Shown: one piece after another, positions 2,792 to 51,462 of the stretch
Layout of the letters: each line of letters opens with the position of its first letter
How positions within the stretch are numbered: the stretch's first letter is position 1
IMG/VR virus record: IMGVR_UViG_3300028837_000518
Coordinates: 1-64,000 of that record
Length of the DNA stretch: 64,000 nt
Direction: 5' to 3' (one strand)
DNA from: a virus
Position numbers and translations under genes: made by a program
The notes under the pieces: generated by a model
The model's input: only the letters and a program-made list of their open reading frames with translations
The model's database searches: none
Told to the model about the DNA's origin: nothing

Positions 2792-3781
2792 TTAATTAGT
2801 ATCAAACTGGAGGTACCAGTAAGACCAACGTACCTCCCCATACTGTTTCTCTATAGTGTGGGTAAAAGCATTGTATTCCCATAGCGTACCATTCTCCTTG
2901 AAAATCCTAATTTTGTCAAGGCATTCTGTAGTAGCAGCTGACTTTGTTACTTGCGCTTGAAAGCTAACAATGTTATTAACATTTGCTACGCCTACTTTGC
3001 TGTTATAGGTATTGACCACTTTAGAGAACCAGTTCCACCCATCAACTAATGAGCTAATGGGAACATCGTAGCGGTAGCTGTCGCTTGTAGGCGTTGTAGC
3101 ATTGCTGCTAAAGTAGAAGCTTATATTAGTACCTGTGAGTCTACTTACATCATCAATGTAGTACCAGAACTGAAACTTATCGGTCTCGGCAAATACATTA
3201 GTGTAGGCATCAAAATGGTTAGTGTTCTTAAAGGATACAGTAGCTGTACCACCATAAGCCGAAACTGAAGCATCGCCCGCACGAACAATAACGGTTTCGG
3301 CCTTAACACTTGGTTGCTCTGATGTCCAGCCAGCCGTACCATCACAATTATCGAGAGTTGATACTATAGCATCATCATAAAACAACCCAATCTCGGTCCA
3401 ATCACCAACGCCAACCTTCGTATTGAACTTAGCCGAGTATCGAACTTTAGCTGTACCATATCCCCAGTCATATGTAAAGATTACAGGTACGCGTTCGAGT
3501 TCGTCAACAAGCGCTGTCGGCGTGCCACCAGCCGAACCAAGGCCAACAGCAATGTAAGTGGGCCAAGTCGCGCCCCACTTTCCATACACTGTCCCAGGTG
3601 CGCCCCACTTAGTATTCTTTGTTGCCGTCCAATCACCAGATTCAGCCCACTTATATGGGTAGTCGTATGTTGGCTCATCCGCAACAATAACCCACTTTTG
3701 GACGGTACGGTGTGCTGATTGTGGTTGTACTCTTTGTGTACGATCATATATCCGAGCTAGAAAATCCTCGATGCCCCGCAT
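2792..3781 (-). CDS. minor tail protein
   Basis: 329 aa; YIAVGLG...ELER...WTEIGLF resembles tail-fibre collar-type N-terminal motifs; operon position. Confidence 0.55.
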   Translation of the reverse strand: MRGIEDFLARIYDRTQRVQPQSAHRTVQKWVIVADEPTYDYPYKWAESGDWTATKNTKWGAPGTVYGKWGATWPTYIAVGLGSAGGTPTALVDELERVPVIFTYDWGYGTAKVRYSAKFNTKVGVGDWTEIGLFYDDAIVSTLDNCDGTAGWTSEQPSVKAETVIVRAGDASVSAYGGTATVSFKNTNHFDAYTNVFAETDKFQFWYYIDDVSRLTGTNISFYFSSNATTPTSDSYRYDVPISSLVDGWNWFSKVVNTYNSKVGVANVNNIVSFQAQVTKSAATTECLDKIRIFKENGTLWEYNAFTHTIEKQYGEVRWSYWYLQFDTN

Positions 3782-5247
3782 TATTCTCGTAGCCTCGTAG
3801 AGAACTCTATGTTCGTCATAAGAATAGTACCGCCATCAGTAACTTGAATGATCTTCTTAGTAACAGATGTTATAAAAACCGTTACAGCAATTTTATCACC
3901 GCTATCCCAGTCGCCACGCCCGCTTATCACCCAGTGACGAATATCATAAATGTCGCGGACTTTCGACTTGATCTTAAAGTATTGTCCGCTTCGCCAACCC
4001 GTCATAGTAGTAGTGTTAGAGGGTTCGTAGATGCTAAAGCCCCCTGAAATTAGTGGCCACGCATGAGAATCAAGCAGCATATTGCCATAGAACTCTATGG
4101 GGTCATAGCCGGTATCTGACGGGCTATCTATACGATAATCAGGGAGACTAATCATTACTTGGTGTTCACCGTCAGAGCCTTCACGCCTTGCCATTTCATT
4201 AATCGAATCAGGGTCCATAAAGACGGCAACACGGTCGGGAATTGCGTAATCGAAGGATACTTTAACGTAGTCACCACTTGCTGGCATATCAGTAGTGGGA
4301 AAGCGTACTCCCCAATTCATCACGCATACATAGGCGTAATTTGCTTGACCCTCAATAGACTCTGCACTTCCATCCAGCGGGTCAAGCGCTAGAGTTTTTG
4401 TTACCCATTCATCCTCACCATGTTTAGTTTCCACCGTCATATCAACTTCATTCATTGGTGGCATGGGGAGCTTAAAGAATGACTGTGCGCCATCAGCGAG
4501 AACATTATGTTCATATGCATTATCACTCTGTTGCGCATAGTCTTTTATGATTACTACATTAAAGAGACTAGAGACGTCTTCTGTTACCGTTACACCACCT
4601 ATCTCAAGGTTTGCATCAAGGTCGAGTATGTTGCTATATGTTCCATTATTCAGCGGCGAAGCATTGGCGGATACATCACTATCAGGAAAGAAATAAATCT
4701 TTGGTCGCCCTGCTACAGATGCGTCGAAACCTACATACCATGCATATCCAGTAGCTTCTGATAAACGGTCAAAGATACCTGACGCGGGCTCGTAGTCATA
4801 ACCTTCTTTGGGAACGTCAAGACCAGTTGCAATATTATCATCCCAGTTACTATAGTCTGTAAAGTCCGGTGCAAACTCCTGAAGAATGGTCTTGATTCGC
4901 GTGCCGGCTGCACCCTCAGCATATTCCTGTTTAGCGACGAGTCGGCGATCAAGAAAAGCTGTATAATCCGAAACAATAACATTTACAAGCATAGTCTCGG
5001 GATTCTGAAAAGAATCATCAGTTGTAGCAACAACACCTTCAAACTCTCGAGTACTATCTATAATCAAAACCACTACATTGCCAGGCTTGGGCTTTGCCAC
5101 AGTTTCCGCATCCAAATCAGCCCAGGGAATATACATATCGAACTCTAGGCTATCCCCCATAGAAGCAGCGCCATCCTGAATAGATATAGTCGGAATGTTA
5201 ACGTAGGCTGTTACATCAACGTTATCAAGCTCTATAGCTACACCCAT
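3781..5247 (-). CDS. tail hub / distal tail protein
   Basis: 488 aa acidic protein immediately after the tape measure gene. Confidence 0.6.
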   Translation of the reverse strand: MGVAIELDNVDVTAYVNIPTISIQDGAASMGDSLEFDMYIPWADLDAETVAKPKPGNVVVLIIDSTREFEGVVATTDDSFQNPETMLVNVIVSDYTAFLDRRLVAKQEYAEGAAGTRIKTILQEFAPDFTDYSNWDDNIATGLDVPKEGYDYEPASGIFDRLSEATGYAWYVGFDASVAGRPKIYFFPDSDVSANASPLNNGTYSNILDLDANLEIGGVTVTEDVSSLFNVVIIKDYAQQSDNAYEHNVLADGAQSFFKLPMPPMNEVDMTVETKHGEDEWVTKTLALDPLDGSAESIEGQANYAYVCVMNWGVRFPTTDMPASGDYVKVSFDYAIPDRVAVFMDPDSINEMARREGSDGEHQVMISLPDYRIDSPSDTGYDPIEFYGNMLLDSHAWPLISGGFSIYEPSNTTTMTGWRSGQYFKIKSKVRDIYDIRHWVISGRGDWDSGDKIAVTVFITSVTKKIIQVTDGGTILMTNIEFSTRLRE

Positions 5248-8200
5248 CTACCTAACTCCTGAAACTGCATGTCGTCTGCGCAGCTTACGCATAAGTTCAA
5301 CTGAGACTAGGTCAGCCACTTCACGTATTCCCCCAGCACCTACAATAGTATTTCCAGTTACGAAAACATTAACTTCTTGCCCGGCAGCCCGTGTATTCTG
5401 TAGCGGACTAAATGTGAAGGCCTCCGCACCTCTTTCGCCTGCCAAGAAGAGTGTCGGCTTACGAACAATACCACTGCCACCGCGTTGCATTGGCGTTATA
5501 GGGATTACCTCGCCAGTTGTGTCAATCTTAGCTTTAATAACTATATCACCAATACCTTTTAGGAGAGCTTTTCTAATTTTCTTGCCTACTTCTTCCAAGC
5601 TTGTTAGCAAGCTTTCAAGGTTCGTTTCTATACCGGCTTGAAGCTCAGACATTAGATTCACACCCCATGCATTAGAATCAAGGGCTGTAGTAAATAATCC
5701 TATTATGTCATCACGAATTCCTGTTAGAACAGGGTATAATGATTGCTCTGCGTAACCAGCTTTGACACCTTTTTCATAGGCATTCATAAGACCCTCGCCC
5801 CAAGATGATGCATCTAAGTCAGAAGATAACGAAGATTCTATTCCATCCTCTACTTTTGCTAAACCGAGTATTTGTCTCACCGCAAGTGTAGGAAGAACAC
5901 CTAGCGGGAACTCCCATATGAATGCTATGGGAATTTTTAATAGGTTTGCCGGTGTTATTTCACTCAAAAACTCATTCCACGCCTCCTTGACTTTCTCCCA
6001 GGTATCCGCAAAATCAGATTTAAGTGCTTCACGATAATCCTCGTCAAGGGCGAATCTAATAGTAGCATATATTGTTAGTGCTGCCTCAAGGGTAAGGACG
6101 AGGGCAAGGAGGGCAACGGGAGCTTTTAGTAGAACGGGAGTTCCAGCAAAGGCTGCTATAAGAGCATCTTTTATACTTGTAAGGAGATTTGCGGTAAGAG
6201 CTATTGGGTACGACATAGCAATTCTAAGTAATATTAACGATAGAACGGTCTCTATAGGGTGCTCGTCAATCCAGGCCCAAATTTCTTCTTCAACAAACTT
6301 ATTCCAAGTCTCCTGCATCTTCTTAGGCGCGAACGCATTAATGAGAACATGAACAACACCAAGGACAATGGCAGCACCTATAGCACCTATAATAGCGGCT
6401 TTAATTGCAACACCAGCAGCATAAATAACAAAGTGTGCAGCACGCATAATAAGGTGAAATGTTCCACTGGCAAGCTTTAAGGACCACTCAAGCCCAGCCT
6501 TAGCTAAGGTAATTGCAGATTGTACAGCCCACCATAGCCCGGCAATTGTTGCAATAGCCGTTGCAGTAATAGCAATTGAGGTTAGAACGGGATGTTCTTC
6601 CATCCATGCCTTTGTCTCGGGAGAGTTTAACCACTCTGAAGCTGAGTTCCAAAGAGATTGTACTAGGCCCTTTAGAAAGTTCCATACGAAAGCAAGAAAA
6701 ATACCAATAGGGTTTTCCTCAAAGAACTCTTTAAGCGCTGGCTTTACTGTCTCATTCCACCACTTCTTAATAGCCGGACCAATATTTAAGATAAAGCCCT
6801 TGATACTAACCCAGGCATTGCGAAAAGCATCTAAAAGTTCTTTAGGGATAAGCTTACGCAACATATCACTGATTGGCTTGAGTAATCTACCGAACCATGC
6901 AAAGACCTTGCCAAGACTGCGTACTAACCCAAGCATCCATCGCAATCCATGCACACAAAGACGCATGAACTTAAGGAAAAGCCAGAGAGCTGCCACTACA
7001 CTCTTGCGTATAATGTCGGCTAGCATTTGAATCTCAGGCGCAAACTCCTTTAGTGTATCATCCATTAACTTAAGGGTGCCGCGCCAGTGCGAAAGTACAT
7101 CCTCAGACGCCCAAAGAGCGCGCGCAAGCGTAACTAGTGTTGTTGCAAAGTTAGCCAACTTTACCAGCAGTGGTCCAAAGAACTGCTTCCAAATCGGATA
7201 GAGCATGATACGCGTAGTGGCCAGTAGGCTCTCGCGAATCCTGCGAAGGGAAAATGTTGTACTTTGAGATACATCCTCGTAAACTTTCCCGTAGCGCTGC
7301 ATAATTTTCATTTGAATGAATTGTGCTACGGCAGTACGGTTCGTAGTATCTACCATACTTTTATTAACGTGAATGCCGATACGGTGTAGTGACTTCAGGC
7401 TAGCACTCTCAGCGCCCACAGCGCCGGTAAAAATCCGCGAAGCCTCCTCAACTTTAACGCCGAGTGCTGTAGCCAAAACTCCCATGGTATCAACAACTTC
7501 ATTAGAGCCAAGGCCGGCCTTAGTTAGAATATCCATCGACTTAGTAAGGTCATCAAGCGTTGTTCCGTACTTAATTGCCTTCATCTGCGCATAGACAAAC
7601 ATCTTTCCAGCTTCAGCTAGATTGGTAGAAAGTCCACGAAGTTTGTTGATTGCCTCCTCTACAGTAGTGCCGGTATCGCGTATAGCTTTACTTAGGCCCA
7701 AGAAAGCTTTTGTCAAACCACCTACAGTGATAGCGAGTGCTGCTGTAACCAGGGCAATTTTCGGTATGCTAAATCCGAGAAAAGCAAAAGAGTAAAGCAG
7801 TCCACGAATATTACCCTGAAGTGCGTTCATTGACAAGATGAGACCTTGCATAACCGACGACATCGGTCGCAACCTTGCAACTGTTTCCCAAATCTGGTTC
7901 TTAATATAACGGAATCCACGCGCACTATTACCAACAGCACCACTAAGGTCTGAAGTGGCTTTCGTGCTAGTTACAGCGGCTCTCGTAGATTCGTCTAGTG
8001 CCTGTGAGTGTTCAAGGATTGTACGTATTGTACCTTGTAGGGACTTACGAAATGCCTCGGTTCGCGTTGCATTCGCTTGTGTGGCTGTCCCCAATTGCAT
8101 AGTATTGGCCGCCGCACCTAATCCCTGTTTTCCCAGGCCCTCCAATTGTGGCAAAAGCGCAGCAATTTCATAAGCCATTTTATTTAGTGCGGCTGGCGTA

Positions 8201-42529: not shown

Positions 42530-43498
42530 GTGCCTTTGGATAACCTACAAGAAATCCTTGCGAACCTAGCAATAGCACAAGGGACCTCAGAACCCAAGCC
42601 CAAAGTTGTATCTATCCGTGCCAGAAAGGTATTTCGTCCGGCTGGCTGGTCTGAGTTTGTTGGTCATAAAGATGTAGTGCGCATACTACGTCAGGCACGA
42701 CAGTCAGCAGAGTCAAGAATGGAAACACTTCGACCCGTACTGCTTTGGGGACCACCCGGTTGTGGCAAGACTACAGTTGCTCGTCTACTGGCAGGTAGTG
42801 CGGGGCTACGGGAACTATCAGGCCCCACTATTGACCCAATAGAACTAGCCAATGCTCTCCAAGAGTTGTATGGTGCGAGATTTGTTCTTATTGATGAGAT
42901 ACATGGGTTGGCTAGACCCGCCCAAGAAGTTCTTTACCCCGTTCTGGATGACGGTATAGTTCACTGGGCAGGTCTAGCTACAGAGATAACCACTTCCCTC
43001 ATTGGTGCTACAACCGAGCTTGGAAAGTTAGTCAAACCTCTTCGCGATAGATTCTCTCTATCACTCTACATTGGTCATTATAACGATGAAGAGATGACGA
43101 AGATTGCTGGACTCATGGCAAGGTCTCTCAAGCTGACTATACAACAACATGGTGCAAGAACAGTAGTAAAGTGGGCGCGAGGAACGCCGCGGTGGGCTTT
43201 ACGAATCATAGAGCGTGTTCGTGACTTTTCAACTTCTATGAGTAGACGGTCGGTAAGAAAAGCAGTTGAGGACTTAGGGTTTGATACTACTGGTCTACTG
43301 CCCGAAGAGCGGGTATATCTAACAGCACTATATCTACTTGGTGGTCGCTCGGGTATATCAAACCTTTCTGCATCCATGCAACAAGATAACAACTCAGTTA
43401 GAATAGTAGAGGCCTACCTGATTCGTGCTGGTTACGTTACAATTACATCACGCGGACGAACACTCACCGATAAAGGTGTTAGATACATTGACAAGTAA
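42530..43498 (+). CDS. ruvB: Holliday junction branch migration ATPase RuvB
   Basis: FRP..W.EFVG, GPPGCGKTT, IDEIH, GATT..G.L.KPLRDRF, RGTPR, E.YLI..G...T.RGR. Confidence 0.9.
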   Translation: MPLDNLQEILANLAIAQGTSEPKPKVVSIRARKVFRPAGWSEFVGHKDVVRILRQARQSAESRMETLRPVLLWGPPGCGKTTVARLLAGSAGLRELSGPTIDPIELANALQELYGARFVLIDEIHGLARPAQEVLYPVLDDGIVHWAGLATEITTSLIGATTELGKLVKPLRDRFSLSLYIGHYNDEEMTKIAGLMARSLKLTIQQHGARTVVKWARGTPRWALRIIERVRDFSTSMSRRSVRKAVEDLGFDTTGLLPEERVYLTALYLLGGRSGISNLSASMQQDNNSVRIVEAYLIRAGYVTITSRGRTLTDKGVRYIDK

Positions 43499-43638: not shown

Positions 43639-44286
43639 ATGCAGAGAAACTTCTCATTCATTGCCAACTCAAATACTTTAGAGTTTCTAGCGCGTGTAGT
43701 AGCGGTTATTCGAGAGGATGACGCCTGGATTAGTAAGCGCAGAAAGCGCGAAGTGATACCCTGGGCTACAGTCACTGCCGACCGCGCAATGCGTTATACA
43801 GGAGTACTATTCCCTCATGACTGGGACCTTGCTTGGCAAGCTATCTCATGGTGTCGCGAGGTAATGGGAAAGAGAGAAGATGTTAATGACTATGAAGTGA
43901 ACCTACTCTTTTCTGTTATGGATGATAACTTTCCACATGAACAGCGCGCACTTCTGGCCAGCCTCATTCCTAAGTTTTACCGCGAGGGTGGCAGCACTGA
44001 CAGTATACATCTTGGCTCCGTTGCTATACGACAGTACTTCGACTACCTAAAACTAGAATGCACGCTGCCTATAGATACGGTTTGGGGTCATGGATATGTA
44101 TACCGATTCTCTGACTCTGATAGTAATGTACTCATTTGGTCAACAAGTAGTAAAAAACTGGATACTGGTTTAGTTTATGCCGGCAGATGTACCGTTAAAG
44201 CACATCGAGAAGTGCATGGTATTTGCAGTACTATTTTGACGCGATGCGCAATATCTGAATGTGGCAGCGATATAGTCCGAGCTTGA
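43639..44286 (+). CDS. hypothetical protein with C-terminal OB-like domain
   Basis: HLGSV...YRFSD..SNVLIW...TVKAH...TILTRC pattern. Confidence 0.5.
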   Translation: MQRNFSFIANSNTLEFLARVVAVIREDDAWISKRRKREVIPWATVTADRAMRYTGVLFPHDWDLAWQAISWCREVMGKREDVNDYEVNLLFSVMDDNFPHEQRALLASLIPKFYREGGSTDSIHLGSVAIRQYFDYLKLECTLPIDTVWGHGYVYRFSDSDSNVLIWSTSSKKLDTGLVYAGRCTVKAHREVHGICSTILTRCAISECGSDIVRA

Positions 44287-44343
44287 CCAATTATCCTTAT
44301 CGTCTTTTGCTGTCTTTTACGGCCTACCACTGCGGGTTGGGAT

Positions 44344-44372
44344 TTGACAAGACGTAGAATCTATGCTACAAT
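44344..44372 (+). promoter_or_regulatory. sigma70 promoter heading the Y RNA/tRNA/Ro60 unit
   Basis: TTGACA-17 nt-TACAAT with TGn extension. Confidence 0.8.
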
Positions 44373-44436
44373 TTTCGGCGCATAATTGCGTGTGCAGGTG
44401 AAACTCCTACGGAAAACACAAATCCAGGAGGCAGTA

Positions 44437-45120
44437 ATGAAGTTCAATAATTTTTCCCTTAGAGTTATCGGAGGGCGCGAGAAAGCAAGTGGTTATGTTG
44501 AGATAACGCATGGCCAGCAATACTCGCTATCCATGCGTAACTTCGATAGTTTACCATGTGATGCAAAAGTAGTAATAGGTGATGTGCATATCGGCACCTG
44601 GCGTATTAGAGGCAATCGCTCCATCATCATTGAGCGGCCAGTAAATGACCAGGGTCGGTTCACCTTCTATAAGGTTGGTTCGAGTGAAGCTGAGAAGATA
44701 GGTGCTACACCGGGTGCGTCCCGTAACGGCCTAATCACGGTTACATTCACGCCAGAAATACCAAAGCCCGTACAACTTATCTACCCCCATCATTCATATA
44801 ACGACCCTTGGCGATGGCGGCCACGATATGATAGTAATTGGCTCTTTTCCTGTGGTTCGAGTACAGGTGGTGGTAGCGTACAGTCGCAGCTGCGGGGCAG
44901 CCCTGTCAGCTTTGGTGATACTCCCGTTACTGCTGATTCGTATGAAGAGGGTGTTTCTGGTCTTTCAGGATATAGTGATCAAAGATTCACCCGCGTTGCA
45001 CCACTTGACTACGATCTAACACGACAGACAACAATATCTTTGCGACTAGTCTGTAGTGACATCAGGGGGGAACCACGACCGCTAGTTTCTTGCGGTAATC
45101 CAGTCCCTCCGCCAGTATAG
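44437..45120 (+). CDS. beta-sandwich hypothetical protein
   Basis: RBS AGGAGG before ATG 44437; beta-rich N-domain, low-complexity linker, Pro-rich end. Confidence 0.65.
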   Translation: MKFNNFSLRVIGGREKASGYVEITHGQQYSLSMRNFDSLPCDAKVVIGDVHIGTWRIRGNRSIIIERPVNDQGRFTFYKVGSSEAEKIGATPGASRNGLITVTFTPEIPKPVQLIYPHHSYNDPWRWRPRYDSNWLFSCGSSTGGGSVQSQLRGSPVSFGDTPVTADSYEEGVSGLSGYSDQRFTRVAPLDYDLTRQTTISLRLVCSDIRGEPRPLVSCGNPVPPPV

Positions 45121-45151
45121 ATATTCTTTAGTTTCTACTGCACACGCAACA

Positions 45152-45214
45152 CGTCTGGGTCGCCGATTGCTGGTTACCACTTAAATGTTCCAGTAATCAC
45201 GAACTTATCCGGCG
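45152..45214 (+). ncRNA. Y RNA-like RNA 1
   Basis: Lower stem CGTCTGGGT/ATCCGGCG (one bulge), GGTCG..CTTATC, upper stem GATTGCTGG/CCAGTAATC, then TTACC. Confidence 0.65.
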
Positions 45215-45322
45215 CTTACTTTAAACACCACACCGAGCTAGTATTTCTAAAGAAACCGTGCGATCTTTGATTCTAAGATCAAAGATTCTACAACTTCTAA
45301 GTGACAGTCTTGGTGTTGGTAC

Positions 45323-45423
45323 GGGTTGGGTCGAAGTATGTCGGTTATCATACATAGTAATAGCATGGGTAAGAGTACGGCTCTACCATGCCCAAACTCG
45401 ACATACATTCCCTTATCCAATCC
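45323..45423 (+). ncRNA. Y RNA-like RNA 2
   Basis: GGGTTGGGT/ATCCAATCC, CGAA, GTATGTCG/CGACATAC, GTTATC, internal hairpin. Confidence 0.8.
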
Positions 45424-45440
45424 ATAATACTTAAATTGTT

Positions 45441-45499
45441 GGCTAGGTCGAAGTATGCTGGTTATCCTCTATGATCCCGGCTACAATCCTTATCTAGCC
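45441..45499 (+). ncRNA. Y RNA-like RNA 3 (minimal, 59 nt)
   Basis: GGCTAGGT/ATCTAGCC, CGAA, GTATGCTGG/CCGGCTAC, TTATC loop. Confidence 0.8.
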
Positions 45500-45502
45500 T
45501 TT

Positions 45503-45575
45503 AGGTAAATAGCTCAGTTGGTAGAGCACTTCTTTTACAAAGAAGAGATCGCAGGTTCGAGTCCTGCTTTGCCTA
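45503..45575 (+). tRNA. tRNA-Val(TAC)
   Basis: AGGTAAA/TTTGCCT acceptor, CTTCT-TTTACAA-AGAAG anticodon arm, GCAGG-TTCGAGT-CCTGC; followed by CTA, not CCA. Confidence 0.92.
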
Positions 45576-45586
45576 CTAAAACTTAA

Positions 45587-45693
45587 TAGATTAGGTCGAA
45601 GAGTATCGGTTATCAAGGCAAGCCGAGAGGTTGGTCTGGTGAGCCAGACTTAACATCGGTTATGAAAACGATCTCACAAACTTATCTAATCTA
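45587..45693 (+). ncRNA. Y RNA-like RNA 4
   Basis: TAGATTAGGT/ATCTAATCTA, CGAA, GAGTATCG/CGATCTC, GTTATC, long internal hairpin. Confidence 0.8.
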
Positions 45694-45696
45694 CAT

Positions 45697-45768
45697 GGGG
45701 GCGTAGCTTAACGGGAAAGCACCTCTTTTGCAAGGAGGGTACTGGAGGTTCAATTCCTCCCGTCTCCA
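45697..45768 (+). tRNA. tRNA-Ala(TGC)
   Basis: GGGGGCG/CGTCTCC with G3:U70, CCTCT-TTTGCAA-GGAGG, GGAGG-TTCAATT-CCTCC. Confidence 0.92.
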
Positions 45769-45771
45769 CCT

Positions 45772-45834
45772 CTTGGGTCGAATGCATTGGGTTATTCAAG
45801 GTGAAAACTTCCCAACGCAGTTAACTTATCCAAG
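45772..45834 (+). ncRNA. Y RNA-like RNA 5
   Basis: CTTGGGT/ATCCAAG, CGAA, TGCATTGGG/CCCAACGCA (one mismatch), TTATT, CTTATC. Confidence 0.78.
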
Positions 45835-45843
45835 TAATAATAT

Positions 45844-45916
45844 GCGGGAGTAGCTCAGTTGGTAGAGCATCGCCTTGCCAGGGCGAGGGTCACGAGTTCG
45901 AGTCTCGTTTTCCGCT
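45844..45916 (+). tRNA. tRNA-Gly(GCC)
   Basis: GCGGGAG/TTTCCGC, TCGCC-TTGCCAG-GGCGA, ACGAG-TTCGAGT-CTCGT, U73. Confidence 0.92.
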
Positions 45917-45925
45917 TATGTTGTT

Positions 45926-46004
45926 AAGCCGGGTCGAGTTCAGTGGGTTATTGTGTATAATAATCCTTGTGTGTGTTTTCCCACTGGAAAAGTTAACCTG
46001 GCTT
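45926..46004 (+). ncRNA. Y RNA-like RNA 6
   Basis: AAGCCGGGT/ACCTGGCTT, CGAG, TTCAGTGGG/CCCACTGGA, TTATT. Confidence 0.72.
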
Positions 46005-46051
46005 TTATCTCTCTGGGACGCTTTTCCATCCACCACTACTAGGAGGTTATA

Positions 46052-47752
46052 ATGAGCAATTACGGCCAACACTTCTCTACACAGCAAACCGTCCAGACCG
46101 AGCCCATCCCAGGAAAAGATATGGGAGAAAACTTGGCTGGTGGTTATGCATTCAAGATTGATAAGTGGGCAAGACTTCAGCGTTTTCTTATCCTCGGCGC
46201 GGAAGGCACCTACTATGCTAGCGGTCAAGCAATGACCATTGATAATGCTAACGTAGTAGTGGATTGTATTCGGGAAGATGGCCGGCGAGTGGTAGATAGT
46301 ATTGTTACTACCTCACAAGAGGGTCGTGCGCCCAAGAATGACTCAGCACTATTTGCCCTTCTCATGTGTATGACACCAGACTTTGCCAATCTTGCAACTC
46401 GCCAAGCAGCATTTGCTGCTCTTCCTGCAGTTGCACGAATTGGTACGCACCTATTTAAGTTCTGCTCTGAGGTTGACTCAATGCGGGGTTGGGGACGTGG
46501 GCTACGACGCGCACTCTCTAGGTGGTACAACTCTAAAGCTCCTGCTCGCCTTGCATACCAAGTTGTAAAGTATCAGCAGCGGCATGGCTGGACCCACAGA
46601 GATGTATTGCGCAAGGCTCACCCAGTCCCCTTATCGGATGCGCACAAGATTATCTATCACTACATAACTCAAAAGGAGCTACCATGTAGTCTCGCGCAGA
46701 CAGAGGGTGGTGTGGATATGTTGTATGCCTTCGAGTCTATCAAACGGGCCGAGAGTGTTAATCAGGCCACACAACTAATCCGTGAATTCAGACTTCCTCG
46801 CGAGGCAGTGCCAACTCGATTCTTGAATGATAGTGCTATTTGGCAAGCACTACTAGAATCTATGCCTATGACCGCCATGATTCGCAACCTTGCCAAGATG
46901 ACCAGTATTGGTCTACTTGCTCCCTTGTCGTTCGCAGCTAACTTTGTAGTAAAGCAATTAGGTAATGCAGATTATCTGAGACGCGCACGCGTTCACCCAT
47001 TCTCTGTATTTCTTGCGTTGCGAACCTACGCGATGGGTTGCGGTATTCGTGGTAAGCTTCGGTGGGAACCAGTACCTGCCATAGTAGATGCGCTTGACAA
47101 GGCTTTTTACTTGTGTTTTGATAATGTTGAGCCAACTGGAAAGCGTATAGTAATCGGCGTTGATGTCTCGGGTAGCATGAGTGCGCCGATACTCGCTGAT
47201 CCTAATACACAATTCATGGTACCGGGGCCACCATCAGTCCTGGAGGCCGCTGCTGCAATTGCGTTAGTTACTAACGCTGTGGAACCCAATAGTACTATAG
47301 TAGCATTCTCGCATGATATAGTACCAATCACTATTACACCGCGCCAGCGGATTGATAACCTTTGCAACGAGCTACGCGGCCTACCAATGGGCAATACAGA
47401 CTGTGCTCTACCCATGCTTTGGGCGCTAGGTTATGCGCCCGATGTACGTGGTGGTATTCACAGATGGTTCCGTCACCCCTGCGATTATAAGAAAGTTAGG
47501 GACAACGTTATCGAGGCTGATGTTTTCATAGTAATTACCGACAACGAGACTTGGTTTGGCAAGATACACCCTGTGCAGGCACTAAACAAGTATCGAAAGC
47601 AAACAGGTATTGACGCCAAGCTAGTTGTTCTCGCTATGACCTCTACCGGATTTTCTATAGCTGACCCCAATGATTCTGGAATGCTTGATATTTGTGGTAT
47701 GGATAGCGCTGTTCCCACACTTATCTCTGACTTTATAAGTGGCAGAGTTTAG
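46052..47752 (+). CDS. rsr: Ro60/Rsr RNA-binding protein (TROVE plus vWA domains)
   Basis: NLAGGYAF...LQRFLILG.EGTYY, GWGRGLRRA, YQVVKYQQRHGWTHRD, MPMTAMIRNL, RVHP, MIDAS DVSGSM, TDCALPM, TDNETW, SIADPND.GMLD; RBS AGGAGG. Confidence 0.95.
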   Translation: MSNYGQHFSTQQTVQTEPIPGKDMGENLAGGYAFKIDKWARLQRFLILGAEGTYYASGQAMTIDNANVVVDCIREDGRRVVDSIVTTSQEGRAPKNDSALFALLMCMTPDFANLATRQAAFAALPAVARIGTHLFKFCSEVDSMRGWGRGLRRALSRWYNSKAPARLAYQVVKYQQRHGWTHRDVLRKAHPVPLSDAHKIIYHYITQKELPCSLAQTEGGVDMLYAFESIKRAESVNQATQLIREFRLPREAVPTRFLNDSAIWQALLESMPMTAMIRNLAKMTSIGLLAPLSFAANFVVKQLGNADYLRRARVHPFSVFLALRTYAMGCGIRGKLRWEPVPAIVDALDKAFYLCFDNVEPTGKRIVIGVDVSGSMSAPILADPNTQFMVPGPPSVLEAAAAIALVTNAVEPNSTIVAFSHDIVPITITPRQRIDNLCNELRGLPMGNTDCALPMLWALGYAPDVRGGIHRWFRHPCDYKKVRDNVIEADVFIVITDNETWFGKIHPVQALNKYRKQTGIDAKLVVLAMTSTGFSIADPNDSGMLDICGMDSAVPTLISDFISGRV

Positions 47753-47753
47753 C

Positions 47754-48209
47754 ATGAGCGAGGCGGAAAGACTTGAGGCTCTAATAGATCAGTTAGCAGA
47801 GCTAAGAGATATGGTGCACTTTCTTCAAAGTGCCGAAGACGATGCGAAAGCAACGCTAGAGCAAGTACAAGAATACCAAATCTATAACAATATAGTAGAT
47901 GGGCGCAAAAAGCTAAAGCGACAGGTTAAAGAACACGAAGTAGTAATACGTAACTTAGTTGTTAAAGTCTTTAGTGAAACAGGCATAAGGTATCCGGGGA
48001 CAGGTCGTGCATATATTCAAATGGTTAAGACTTGTGTCTACGACGAAACCAATATTCATGCCTGGTGTGTCGAACGCGCCCCCGGCTTTCTCAATCTTAA
48101 TACTAGAGCAATTGAGAAAGCAGCAAAGTCGGGTGCAAATGGTATGCCTATAGAAGTTACTGTAGTTCCGCGCGGTTATATCAAGGGCAAGCTAGATGTC
48201 CCGGCCTAA
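47754..48209 (+). CDS. coiled-coil phage protein (Gp157/Gam-like, tentative)
   Basis: Heptad N-half and beta C-half; directly after rsr. Confidence 0.4.
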   Translation: MSEAERLEALIDQLAELRDMVHFLQSAEDDAKATLEQVQEYQIYNNIVDGRKKLKRQVKEHEVVIRNLVVKVFSETGIRYPGTGRAYIQMVKTCVYDETNIHAWCVERAPGFLNLNTRAIEKAAKSGANGMPIEVTVVPRGYIKGKLDVPA

Positions 48210-48699
48210 TACACCAAGCTTTTGGACAACAACACATACTACCAGTGAAAAGGACGAGTGGGAAACACCGCGAAGTCTCGTTAGCTACTTAGCACAGTAC
48301 TTTTCCTGGGACCTTGATGTGTGTGCGAGTCGAGCAAATGTCTGCGAGACCTTTCTTACTAAGGCCGATAACGCCCTAAGTTGTAGTTGGACGGGACTGT
48401 GCTGGAATAACCCACCATACGGAAAAGAGATGCGTCGGTGGATTGCTAAAGCAAAACACGCTGCGCAGTCCCCCGGCACTACAGTAGTCTGTCTAGTGCC
48501 GGCTCGCACCGATACTAAGTGGTGGCATCACAACGTTCCTGAAGCAAGCTTGGTAGTTTTCTTAAAGGGTCGACTTAGCTTTGAACTAGATAACATTGGG
48601 CAACCCGCACCATTCCCATCAGCTATAATAGTGTTTGGTCCACTAAGTGAACTACAGAAAAATGTTCTAAAACACATGGGCTGGTCACCACTAGGATAG
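48196..48699 (+). CDS. phage DNA N6-adenine methyltransferase
   Basis: DEWETP, LDVCAS, NPPYG, LVPARTDTKWW, F.KGRL.F, APFPS. Confidence 0.9.
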   Translation: MSRPNTPSFWTTTHTTSEKDEWETPRSLVSYLAQYFSWDLDVCASRANVCETFLTKADNALSCSWTGLCWNNPPYGKEMRRWIAKAKHAAQSPGTTVVCLVPARTDTKWWHHNVPEASLVVFLKGRLSFELDNIGQPAPFPSAIIVFGPLSELQKNVLKHMGWSPLG

Positions 48700-50835: not shown

Positions 50836-51462
50836 ATGCATCATTGGGGACAAGAAGGTGTTGAGTTACCAGTACCGGCGACTAAGCTGGTTAGTGCCGA
50901 GGCCAGTACACCAAAACTGACTGTAGAAACAGTAGATAATCACGTGTACTTTTATGCTACTGTTAACAGTGATCGCTGTTTAGCCTTAGTTCGTACCATT
51001 CGCGAACTTGATGGAAAACTTAGGAACGAACATGCCTCACGTGCATTGCCGGCAGAGCACCCATTAACACCTATTTGGTTGCATGTGAATAGCGATGGGG
51101 GCAGTGTGTTTGACGCGCTTGGTGTTGCCGATCAACTGAAAAGTATTAAGACACCAATATTCTCTGTAGTAGAGGGGTGTGCAGCAAGCTCTGCGACTCT
51201 CCTCAGTGTCCCTTGTACGAAGCGGTTTATTACTTCATCTTCTTTCATGCTTATTCATCAAGTTTCCAGCATTATGTGGGGAACATACGAGCAGTTTAAA
51301 GATCAGATGAAGGTACTTGACATGATCATGCGTCAACTTGTCAACTTTTACTCGACTCACACAAAGCTGGAGCCATTAAAGCTCGAGGAGCTTCTCAAGC
51401 GTGATTCGTGGTTTGCCGCACAGCAATGTGTGGATATAGGGTTAGTGGACGCTATTCTATAG
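50836..51462 (+). CDS. clpP: ClpP-like serine protease
   Basis: VNSDGGSV, GCAASSA (Ser), MLIHQ (His), RDSWF.A..C...GLVD. Confidence 0.85.
   Translation: MHHWGQEGVELPVPATKLVSAEASTPKLTVETVDNHVYFYATVNSDRCLALVRTIRELDGKLRNEHASRALPAEHPLTPIWLHVNSDGGSVFDALGVADQLKSIKTPIFSVVEGCAASSATLLSVPCTKRFITSSSFMLIHQVSSIMWGTYEQFKDQMKVLDMIMRQLVNFYSTHTKLEPLKLEELLKRDSWFAAQQCVDIGLVDAIL

Follow-up and report, generated by a model that had tools for sequence, protein, structure and literature searches.

An uncultured phage carries a Ro60 gene together with an array of six Y-RNA-like elements (E1–E6) that, judged by motif, predicted fold and covariation, are genuine Y RNAs; the array is well supported, and multi-copy arrays of this kind are common beside Ro60 in phages and bacteria. 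The array and the Ro60 gene lie inside a 64-kb window (the whole stretch of DNA analyzed here) of a 109-kb genome. All six elements are found on the + strand immediately upstream of the Ro60 gene, at the starts and with the length range (59–107 nt) given in a preliminary description of this DNA, which had also placed the end of the array 47 nt before Ro60, the distance that we measure to the ATG at 46052. Three tRNA genes (Val, Ala, and Gly), absent from that description, occupy the E3/E4, E4/E5, and E5/E6 intervals, and a U-rich tract directly follows E6. We consider it probable that a small ORF, the six Y RNAs, the three tRNAs, and Ro60 form one + strand unit, a self-contained phage Ro60 RNP module in which tRNA and RNase III processing would release RNAs whose apices may tether partners.

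Table 1. Features of the Ro60 locus, in window coordinates
Feature	Position	Strand	Description
Candidate σ70-like promoter	44344–44372	+	TTGACA-17-TACAAT with TG; 11/12 matches, best in 44000–48500; consensus match only
Long-range duplex, 5' arm	44386–44405	+	20 bp; in 5' UTR of upstream ORF
Hypothetical ORF	44437–45120	+	227 aa; ATG behind AGGAGG; bracketed by long-range duplex
Long-range duplex, 3' arm	45130–45149	+	ends 2 nt before E1
E1, Y-like RNA	45152–45214	+	63 nt; CGCC variant, GGUUACC; apex 16 nt; R3 39.8 bits
E1-E2 spacer, non-Y	45227–45320	+	long irregular hairpin, 11-bp apical stem
E2, Y-like RNA	45323–45423	+	101 nt; apex ∼52 nt with own stem-loop; R3 53.1 bits
E3, Y-like RNA	45441–45499	+	59 nt; R3 36.7 bits
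tRNA-Val(UAC)	45503–45576	+	3 nt past E3; Rfam tRNA 75.3 bits; ARAGORN
E4, Y-like RNA	45587–45693	+	107 nt; apex ∼59 nt with long hairpin; R3 27.1 bits
tRNA-Ala(UGC)	45697–45770	+	3 nt past E4, 1–3 nt before E5; Rfam tRNA 64.4 bits; ARAGORN
E5, Y-like RNA	45772–45834	+	63 nt; apex 19 nt; R3 41.8 bits
tRNA-Gly(GCC)	45844–45916	+	9 nt past E5, 9 nt before E6; Rfam tRNA 63.6 bits; ARAGORN
E6, Y-like RNA	45926–46004	+	79 nt; apex 32 nt, U/G-rich; GUUAAC variant, CGAG; R3 31.9 bits
Ro60/Rsr gene	46052–47752	+	566 aa; TROVE and Ro60-type vWA; RBS AGGAGG at 46042

The gene adjoining the array is an unambiguous Ro60, as had been claimed. Its product matches the Pfam families vWA_Ro60 (PF25045, 194 bits) and TROVE (PF05731, 144 bits), and the MIDAS motif DVSGS is invariant in the alignment. 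A comparison with the PDB returns vertebrate Ro60 (E 7e-120, 404 bits, full-length alignment) and Deinococcus Rsr (E 1e-98). We located 7994 homologues; an identical Ro60 is encoded on four other contigs, and further relatives follow at 51–53%. Lys173 and Arg177 of the phage protein align with Xenopus K170 and R174, which we take to be Y-RNA contacts.

The six elements share one handle, in which a lower stem ending in GGU is followed by an unpaired C and a G·U/A-U step (GGU-C-GA), a 9-bp upper stem, GGUUAYY, and then YUUAUC closing the helix. The C following GGU is invariant across all six copies, and the spacing from GGUCG to GGUUAY is exactly 14 nt in each of them (6/6). UUAUC, located just 3' of the upper stem, is exact in E2–E4, and reads UUACC in E1 and UUAUU in E5 and E6; other viral loci supply 64 elements, 48 of which have the exact sequence. 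The sequence variants noticed previously are confirmed, CGCC being that of E1 and CGAG and GUUAAC those of E6. A search with GGTCG-N(8-14)-GGTTAY returned six matches in the window, all in the array (0.24 expected), and none in the remainder of the 109-kb genome. Each element is predicted to fold into a lower stem, an internal loop, an upper stem, and a variable apex (z −1.6 to −4.4, the latter for E2).

Comparison of the six copies supports the two structural claims of the preliminary description, a single architecture with a bulged C and stems that differ in sequence while compensatory change keeps them paired. Under a 17-pair model, which all six copies fit, 94% of cells are paired (75% in shuffled and 30–43% in slid-partner controls), and 10 of the 17 pairs are changed on both sides, a value reached by none of 500 shuffles; the alignment was fitted to a model that did not have these copies in its training set, and such model-fitted alignments lean towards the model. 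A MAFFT alignment of the six copies misaligned the 3' strands and was rejected for covariation analysis. In the 64 independent elements from other viral loci, 95.6% of cells are paired (67% when shuffled, 34–49% in slid controls), with 307 double-sided cells compared with 89 in shuffles. The 2-bp G·U/A-U helix that follows the bulged C, though conserved, shows no double-sided covariation in the six copies or the 64 elements. Taken together, the comparisons support an assignment of the elements as Y-RNA-like Ro60 handles, with Ro60 binding predicted.

Covariance models, a check proposed in the preliminary description, recover the same array. A model built from E1, E3, and E5 (R1) returns the held-out E6 (20.9 bits) and E2 (17.4 bits) as its best other matches in the window, and R2, which was not trained on E4, scores E4 at 29.4 bits. 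R3, whose training set was the 64 elements of viral Ro60 loci other than this one, recovers all six (27–53 bits) as its only matches in the 64-kb window. No handle matches were found elsewhere in the 109-kb genome, including beside its two other tRNAs. A weak Y-like match inside the Ro60 coding sequence (46091–46142; R1 12 bits, E 0.67) is absent with R2 and R3 and was put down to chance.

The proposed comparison with Rfam gave a divided answer. E6 matches the Y_RNA (RF00019, 29.9 bits) and sbRNA (RF01656, 20.5 bits) models, whose seeds are metazoan, and E1–E5 have no match to either at E ≤ 10; all Y_RNA and sbRNA scores stay under the gathering threshold (38 for each model). At another Ro60 locus, L009, copies score as high as 32 bits with the sbRNA model. 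The elements show no YrlA likeness: neither YrlA (RF02553) nor Deinococcus_Y_RNA matches at E ≤ 10 over 44900–46150, and in the positive control RF02553 detects Microbacterium phage FuzzBuster (33 bits).

Outside the handle the copies have little in common. The loop domains had been called diversified, and indeed the six apices, 15 to ∼59 nt long, differ fully in length and sequence. One may ask whether the Y RNAs, while real and Ro60-binding, are redundant, having arisen by local duplication for dosage or as drifting paralogues with apices that are unconstrained filler. The 5' halves of E2 and E3 are identical at 19 of 21 positions, which points to recent local duplication, and array sizes from 0 to 12 at related loci suggest easy gain and loss. 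In addition, none of the six loops matches a known partner motif, and the T-loop motif is absent from all six apices, so that the loops hold no tRNA-like effector domain. We nevertheless regard redundancy as unlikely: the handles are strictly kept by compensatory change (the E3 3' strand, for example, carries changes compensating those of its 5' half) while the apices differ fully, the E2, E4, and E6 apices hold stable substructures, and the loop is the effector-binding part in characterized systems, the partner being PNPase in both Deinococcus (PMC4201824) and the Thermus phage phiLo (PMC12135203). Exact-pattern scans of viral and metagenome contigs returned no near relatives of the E2/E3 handle. 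A segment of the E2 apex is complementary to the D-arm/anticodon region of tRNA-Val at 16 of 20 positions; we dismissed this pairing, because chance alone would yield ∼0.6 pairs of this kind in the region.

To place the array in context, we scanned Ro60 neighborhoods with R3, as the preliminary description had proposed for phages. The 79 viral or phage loci contain 171 matches (0–12 copies per locus, median 2), and the studied window ranks second. Three or more copies are found in 27 of these loci, one of them with 12, and in 29 of 80 bacterial loci, which hold 0–8 copies. The multiplicity had been thought exceptional, a view that these counts do not support: six copies place the array in the top 5% or so, yet it is part of a common pattern. 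Every match is co-oriented with Ro60 (171/171 viral and 176/176 bacterial, 347 in total); the matches are spread over 133 of the 159 loci, most of them within ∼1 kb of the Ro60 gene. Such arrays are unannotated even in cultured phages, for example Mycobacterium phage Cali and Gordonia phage Mareelih. We did not find a published description of multi-copy arrays of this kind, the searchable literature giving one or two Y RNAs per phage (PMC12135203, PMC4201824).

The near-universal occurrence of the handle across bacterial and phage Ro60 loci means that a phage Y RNA could plausibly bind host Rsr. The Y RNAs might then act mainly as decoys or gates, produced in molar excess through their many copies, that sponge host Rsr or an exoribonuclease or else occlude the cavity of the phage Ro60, access to which Y RNAs are known to gate (reviewed in PMC4726728). 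However, the phage has its own Ro60 in the same unit, just downstream of the array, and a pure decoy has no need of diversified apices. We thus consider a decoy function improbable, and favor the self-contained module outlined above.

The three interleaved tRNAs are bona fide, with a full cloverleaf, a standard anticodon loop, and scores of 63.6–75.3 bits against a gathering score of 29; tRNA-Ala carries G3:U70, as read from the sequence. The phage genome encodes five tRNAs, three of them inside the array. Tight Y-tRNA junctions (≤10 nt) are also present in loci L047, L026, L066, L086, L028, and L029 and in Gordonia phage Mareelih. Could the hairpins belong to a phage tRNA operon and serve its processing, stability, or termination independently of Ro60, with only a superficial resemblance to Y stems? 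They do sit between tRNAs, similar elements occur inside the tRNA arrays of other phages, and U-rich tracts follow both E6 and the downstream copy at L007. Against this stand the uniform orientation of the 347 matches relative to Ro60 and their proximity to it, the absence of the handle elsewhere in the genome, including at the two other tRNAs, and a conserved sequence that agrees with the site bound by Ro60 in metazoans and with two Rfam models, Y_RNA and sbRNA. We regard this explanation as very improbable indeed. For the module that we prefer, the interleaved tRNAs are the best clue to how the Y RNAs may be released: they suggest a polycistronic transcript, punctuated by tRNAs, that RNase P and RNase Z would cleave, as in Deinococcus Yrn2-tRNAAsp-Yrn1.

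Upstream of the array, the best σ70-like candidate precedes the 227-amino acid ORF, and the scan located no promoter directly ahead of E1 or E2. A TTGATT-16-TACAAC sequence in the E1-E2 hairpin falls below the scan criteria and is a guess only. The two arms of the long-range duplex are 90% complementary (−29.0 kcal/mol, compared with −10.2 ± 2.9 kcal/mol in 1000 shuffles) and are each other's best partner within 3.3 kb. The E1-E2 spacer (−31.2 kcal/mol, z −4.3) has no Rfam match and may be cut by RNase III or contain an internal promoter. The 227-amino acid ORF has no Pfam or PHROG match, in the protein atlas hits nothing but clusters without a name, most of them viral, and is absent from every other Ro60 locus compared. 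Searches of Pfam, PHROG, and the atlas were likewise uninformative for the flanking ORFs, which are not common to any other Ro60 locus. The conserved module is Ro60 and the RNAs alone. The genome encodes no PNPase, RtcB, or other RNA-repair partner.

These features suggest how the module may work. The ORF, Y RNAs, tRNAs, and Ro60 would be transcribed as a polycistron, from which host RNase P, together with RNase Z or 3' trimming, could release Y3–Y6 by acting at the tRNAs, while RNase III-type cuts at the 20-bp duplex and the E1-E2 hairpin, proposed from their folding energies, may release Y1 and Y2. Each Y RNA would dock via its handle on the outer surface of the Ro60 ring and gain stability. 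The six unrelated apices could then tether or gate different partners; as in RYPER, these might include host PNPase or further exoribonucleases. A single phage Ro60 might in this way have several RNA targets during infection, perhaps in counter-defense. It is plausible, by analogy, that interchangeable loop adaptors redirect host decay or buffer defense. This adaptor reading draws on RYPER, phiLo, and Bas63 gp130, a Ro60-like protein of phage Bas63 that counters the ppl defense (PMC11482910) and makes a role in phage-host conflict a concrete hypothesis.

Conservation of Ro60-Y RNA particles extends from bacteria to humans, and the roles of their loops are still largely open. The putative 2.6-kb phage operon, with one Ro60 and six identical handles bearing different apices, offers a natural, tractable test bed for the modular-adaptor idea, since its loops lend themselves to deletion or exchange one at a time. 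Our survey shifts the background, as arrays of 3–12 handle-sharing Y RNAs are common beside Ro60 and often fused into tRNA operons. A broader reading, tentative and rather doubtful, holds that multi-member Y RNA arrays (six here, with maxima of 12 in phages and 8 in bacteria) represent a general, so far undescribed Ro60 design. One ring would be programmed by co-transcribed, tRNA-punctuated adaptors, each apex recruiting its own host nuclease or RNA target; phages would use the set for multi-target counter-defense or hijacking of RNA decay. As a corollary, prokaryotic, phage, and animal Y/sbRNAs would be homologous, because the phage handle is near-metazoan including UUAUC, a closeness that bears on the question of shared ancestry; bacterial Y RNAs have, to the contrary, been stated not to be homologous to the vertebrate ones (PMC4726728).

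Among known systems, phiLo likewise has a phage Ro60 with Y-RNA-like genes directly upstream; its Ro60 binds two Yrl RNAs and host PNPase, and Yrl1 and Yrl2 are recognized by a CGAA motif and a stem-bulge-stem fold (PMC12135203). Binding has been demonstrated for the two phiLo RNAs, for which no interleaved tRNAs are reported, whereas the six RNAs and three tRNAs described here are predicted from sequence. In the Deinococcus radiodurans Rsr locus and in bacterial and mycobacteriophage YrlA/YrlB loci (RF01053, RF02553), Y RNAs adjoin rsr on the same strand, as they do here. Deinococcus makes a polycistronic precursor, Yrn2-tRNAAsp-Yrn1 (Chen et al. 2014, PMC4201824), and YrlA of Mycobacterium smegmatis is cleaved by RNase P (PMC4201824). 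Every characterized species has at least two Y RNAs, at least one of them with a tRNA-like domain (PMC4201824). This domain lies inside the Y RNA in the YrlA/Deinococcus type, which is present in two to four copies, whereas our array has six copies and genuine tRNAs outside the handles; E1–E6 resemble the simple hairpin type of YrlB and Yrn2.

Metazoan Y RNAs and nematode sbRNAs (RF00019, RF01656; PMC4726728) have nearly the same handle, with GGUC(C)GA, an unpaired C, an upper stem, and then UUAUC. Beyond the bulged C, the phage handle lacks one base pair of its metazoan counterpart (GGU-C-GA/UU-AUC compared with GGU-C-CGA/UUG-ACC), and the phage Y genes are clustered in an operon with the protein gene, without the metazoan Pol III/La context. 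Paralogues with different loops within one genome are also a feature of animals, with four Y RNAs in humans and 18 sbRNAs in Caenorhabditis elegans (PMC4726728).

The phage genome is complete (109,319 bp, 46.7% G+C, 144-bp direct terminal repeats), and the window is its first 64 kb. The preliminary description had located six Y-like RNAs upstream of a Ro60 gene. Each of their starts is matched exactly by our elements E1-E6, which form an array on the + strand (45152-46004). Three interleaved tRNAs had been overlooked; they are bona fide and belong to a genome total of five. The locus is ordered E1, structured spacer, E2, E3-tRNAVal-E4-tRNAAla-E5-tRNAGly-E6, Ro60, with gaps of 1-10 nt at the Y-tRNA junctions.

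Features of the array and its upstream region (E1-E6 are also referred to as Y1-Y6)
Feature	Position	Strand	Remark
Sigma-70-like site	44344-44372		consensus match only
Long-range duplex, 20 bp	44386-44405 with 45130-45149		downstream of sigma-70-like site
227-aa ORF	ATG at 44437		bracketed by long-range duplex
E1	45152-45214	+	Y-like RNA
E1-E2 spacer, 94 nt	45227-45320		irregular hairpin
E2	45323-45423	+	Y-like RNA
E3	45441-45499	+	Y-like RNA
tRNA Val-UAC	45503-45576		inside array; Rfam 75 bits
E4	45587-45693	+	Y-like RNA
tRNA Ala-UGC	45697-45770		inside array; G3:U70; Rfam 64 bits
E5	45772-45834	+	Y-like RNA
tRNA Gly-GCC	45844-45916		inside array; Rfam 64 bits
E6	45926-46004	+	Y-like RNA
Ro60 ORF	46052-47752		

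All six elements share a Ro60-type stem part (the handle), above which lies a variable loop domain (the apex). The lower stem (7-10 bp) ends in GGU/AUC and is followed in every element by an unpaired C and then GA facing UU. The upper stem is 9 bp long, interrupted in E3, E4, and E5 by a bulge or mismatch, and leads into GGUUA(U/C)(C/U). Apices vary from ~15 to 59 nt, and the 3' spacer measures 5-6 nt. GGUCG and GGUUAY are 14 nt apart in 6/6 elements, and GGTCG-N8-14-GGTTAY is found six times in the window (0.24 expected), with no further match in the rest of the genome. E4 has two copies of AUCGGUUAU (45606-45615 and 45657-45666), either of which could pair with CGAU on the 3' side of the upper stem, hinting at alternative conformations.

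When a covariance model was trained on E1, E3, and E5 alone (R1), its best other matches in a 128-kb search space were two held-out elements, E6 (20.9 bits) and E2 (17.4 bits), and a second model found E4, unseen in training, at 29.4 bits. R3, a model trained on 64 elements that all come from other viral Ro60 loci, recovers E1-E6 and no other match in the window (53.1, 41.8, 39.8, 36.7, 31.9, and 27.1 bits), which supports their reading as Y RNAs associated with Ro60. R1 also gives a weak Y-like match (12 bits, E 0.67) early in the Ro60 coding sequence (46091-46142); this match is probably due to chance, because the later models miss it. When E1-E6 are aligned to R3, standard pairs occupy 94% of pair cells (75% in shuffled controls, 30-43% with slid partners) and 10/17 pairs have changed on both sides, in agreement with the proposal that pairing is kept by compensatory change; such alignments are model-fitted and biased towards pairing, but the slid controls are nevertheless far lower. 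The 64 independent elements have 95.6% of cells paired (67% shuffled) and 307 double-sided cells (89 in shuffles). The conserved 2-bp helix after the bulged C lacks independent support, since its changes are single-sided.

The protein is a canonical Ro60 (TROVE 144 bits, vWA_Ro60 194 bits), which matches vertebrate Ro60 structures with E 7e-120 (404 bits) and Deinococcus Rsr more weakly (E 1e-98, 335 bits); in sequence it is closer to the vertebrate protein. Its nearest cellular relatives (~50%) come from Chloroflexota, Armatimonadota/Abditibacteriota, and Gemmatimonadota MAGs. We found no RtcB in the phage genome and no conservation of the flanking genes with other Ro60 loci. Proteins encoded nearby (42530-43498, 48196-48699, 50836-51462) are, among others, a RuvB-like AAA+ ATPase, a Dam-type N6-adenine methyltransferase, and a ClpP-family protease; other Ro60 loci share none of these genes. 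The genome content singles out no partner for the Ro60-Y RNAs.

The long-range duplex ends 2 nt before E1 and has an energy of -29 kcal/mol (-10.2 +/- 2.9 in shuffles). The E1-E2 spacer, for which Rfam gave no match, folds into a long, stable hairpin (z -4.3); within the 3' arm of this hairpin, 45280-45296 shows 82% complementarity to positions 44349-44365 of the promoter-like site.

We scanned 80 viral Ro60 loci, three cultured phages, and 80 bacterial Ro60 loci with R3 (E<=0.01; flanks of <=3 kb per side, shorter at contig ends). The same handle family is found, and all matches (171/171 viral, 176/176 bacterial) are on the Ro60 strand.

Loci by number of R3 matches (79 viral/phage loci, window included; 80 bacterial loci)
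Copies	Viral/phage	Bacterial
12	1 (L086)	
8		2
7		1
6	1 (window)	1
5	1	4
4	9	6
3	15, incl. Mycobacterium phage Cali	15
2	20	18
1	17	22
0	15	11

A multiplicity unique to the window, for which the preliminary description knew of no described parallel, is not supported: the viral locus L086 has 12 copies and bacterial loci up to 8. Multi-Y arrays are not phage-specific, because the bacterial Ro60 loci L096 (Chloroflexota), L147 (Rhodomicrobiaceae), and L129 (Verrucomicrobiae), all MAG contigs, contain 8, 8, and 7 co-oriented elements. Given this survey, the window array is real and large, yet one case of a widespread pattern. Phages have been credited with one or two Y RNAs each (PMC12135203) and characterised bacteria with at least two, Deinococcus having four small RNAs (PMC4201824). 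The literature searched contains no description of multi-Y arrays of such size beside Ro60, so the multiplicity is undescribed there, but not unprecedented in sequence data. The wider pattern appears undescribed; interest rests mostly on it and on the window operon as an easy experimental system.

In the closest viral relative (L009), whose Ro60 is 53% identical, the Ro60 gene is immediately preceded by a tandem series of four copies, two of the four with tRNA-like apices. Y-tRNA junctions are likewise tight in L047, L026, L066, L086, L028, and L029, and Gordonia phage Mareelih (L091) has tmRNA-Y-tRNAArg and tRNAIle-Y-tRNAMet junctions; its Y-like RNAs (L091:4893-4958 and 5456-5526) are unannotated in GenBank, as are three upstream of Ro gp224 in Mycobacterium phage Cali (L089:2099-2444). 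The largest array seen (L086:678-2971, IMGVR_UViG_3300020020_000028) comprises 12 non-overlapping elements upstream of Ro60 (24-58 bits), several of 110-150 nt, one surrounding a partial tRNA match (1254-1314). Between the Y-like RNAs upstream of Ro60 in L007 (IMGVR_UViG_3300037067_019204) are two tRNA-like genes (3555-3678 and 3770-3894; Rfam tRNA 48 and 44 bits) unseen by ARAGORN. Both have, in place of the anticodon arm, a hairpin of ~55 nt whose sequence resembles a circular permutation of the Y handle (CUUGGCA, GAAA loop, UGCACGGA...GGGUUAUC); if so, the YrlA topology would be inverted.

We envisage that array and Ro60 are transcribed as one polycistron, for which the Deinococcus Yrn2-tRNAAsp-Yrn1 precursor is a precedent (PMC4201824). 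RNase P, which cleaves M. smegmatis YrlA (PMC4201824), would cut at each tRNA 5' end and so set where Y3, Y4, and Y5 terminate, and 3' processing of the tRNAs would liberate Y4, Y5, and Y6 at their 5' ends. Y1 and Y2 may be released by RNase III, for which the long-range duplex and the spacer hairpin offer candidate sites. Phage Ro60 would then bind the handles, leaving the apices as putative effector or gating modules. An adaptor function of the apices is plausible by analogy; Ro60-Yrl-PNPase complexes are described for phiLo (PMC12135203), and ppl defence is countered by Bas63 gp130 (PMC11482910).

Comparison with Rfam, which the preliminary description had suggested, gave a Y_RNA match for E6 alone, at 29.9 bits and below the gathering score of 38; E6 also scores 20.5 bits with the nematode stem-bulge RNA model. 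The YrlA (RF02553) and Deinococcus_Y_RNA models had no match in the array even at E<=10. As the YrlA model does match the tRNA-like element of Microbacterium phage FuzzBuster, our positive control, E1-E6 all lack a tRNA-mimic domain. At least one Y RNA per species is reported to have such a domain (Chen et al. 2014, PMC4201824), whereas in the window real tRNAs lie beside the handles. The metazoan handle (GGUCCGA.../...UUGACC) is one base pair apart from that of the window, which shares UUAUC with vertebrate Y RNAs and sbRNAs (PMC4726728); the exact motif is present in E2-E4 and in 48/64 elements of other viral loci. The window array is an expanded, tRNA-punctuated set of simple Y RNAs without a YrlA-type member.
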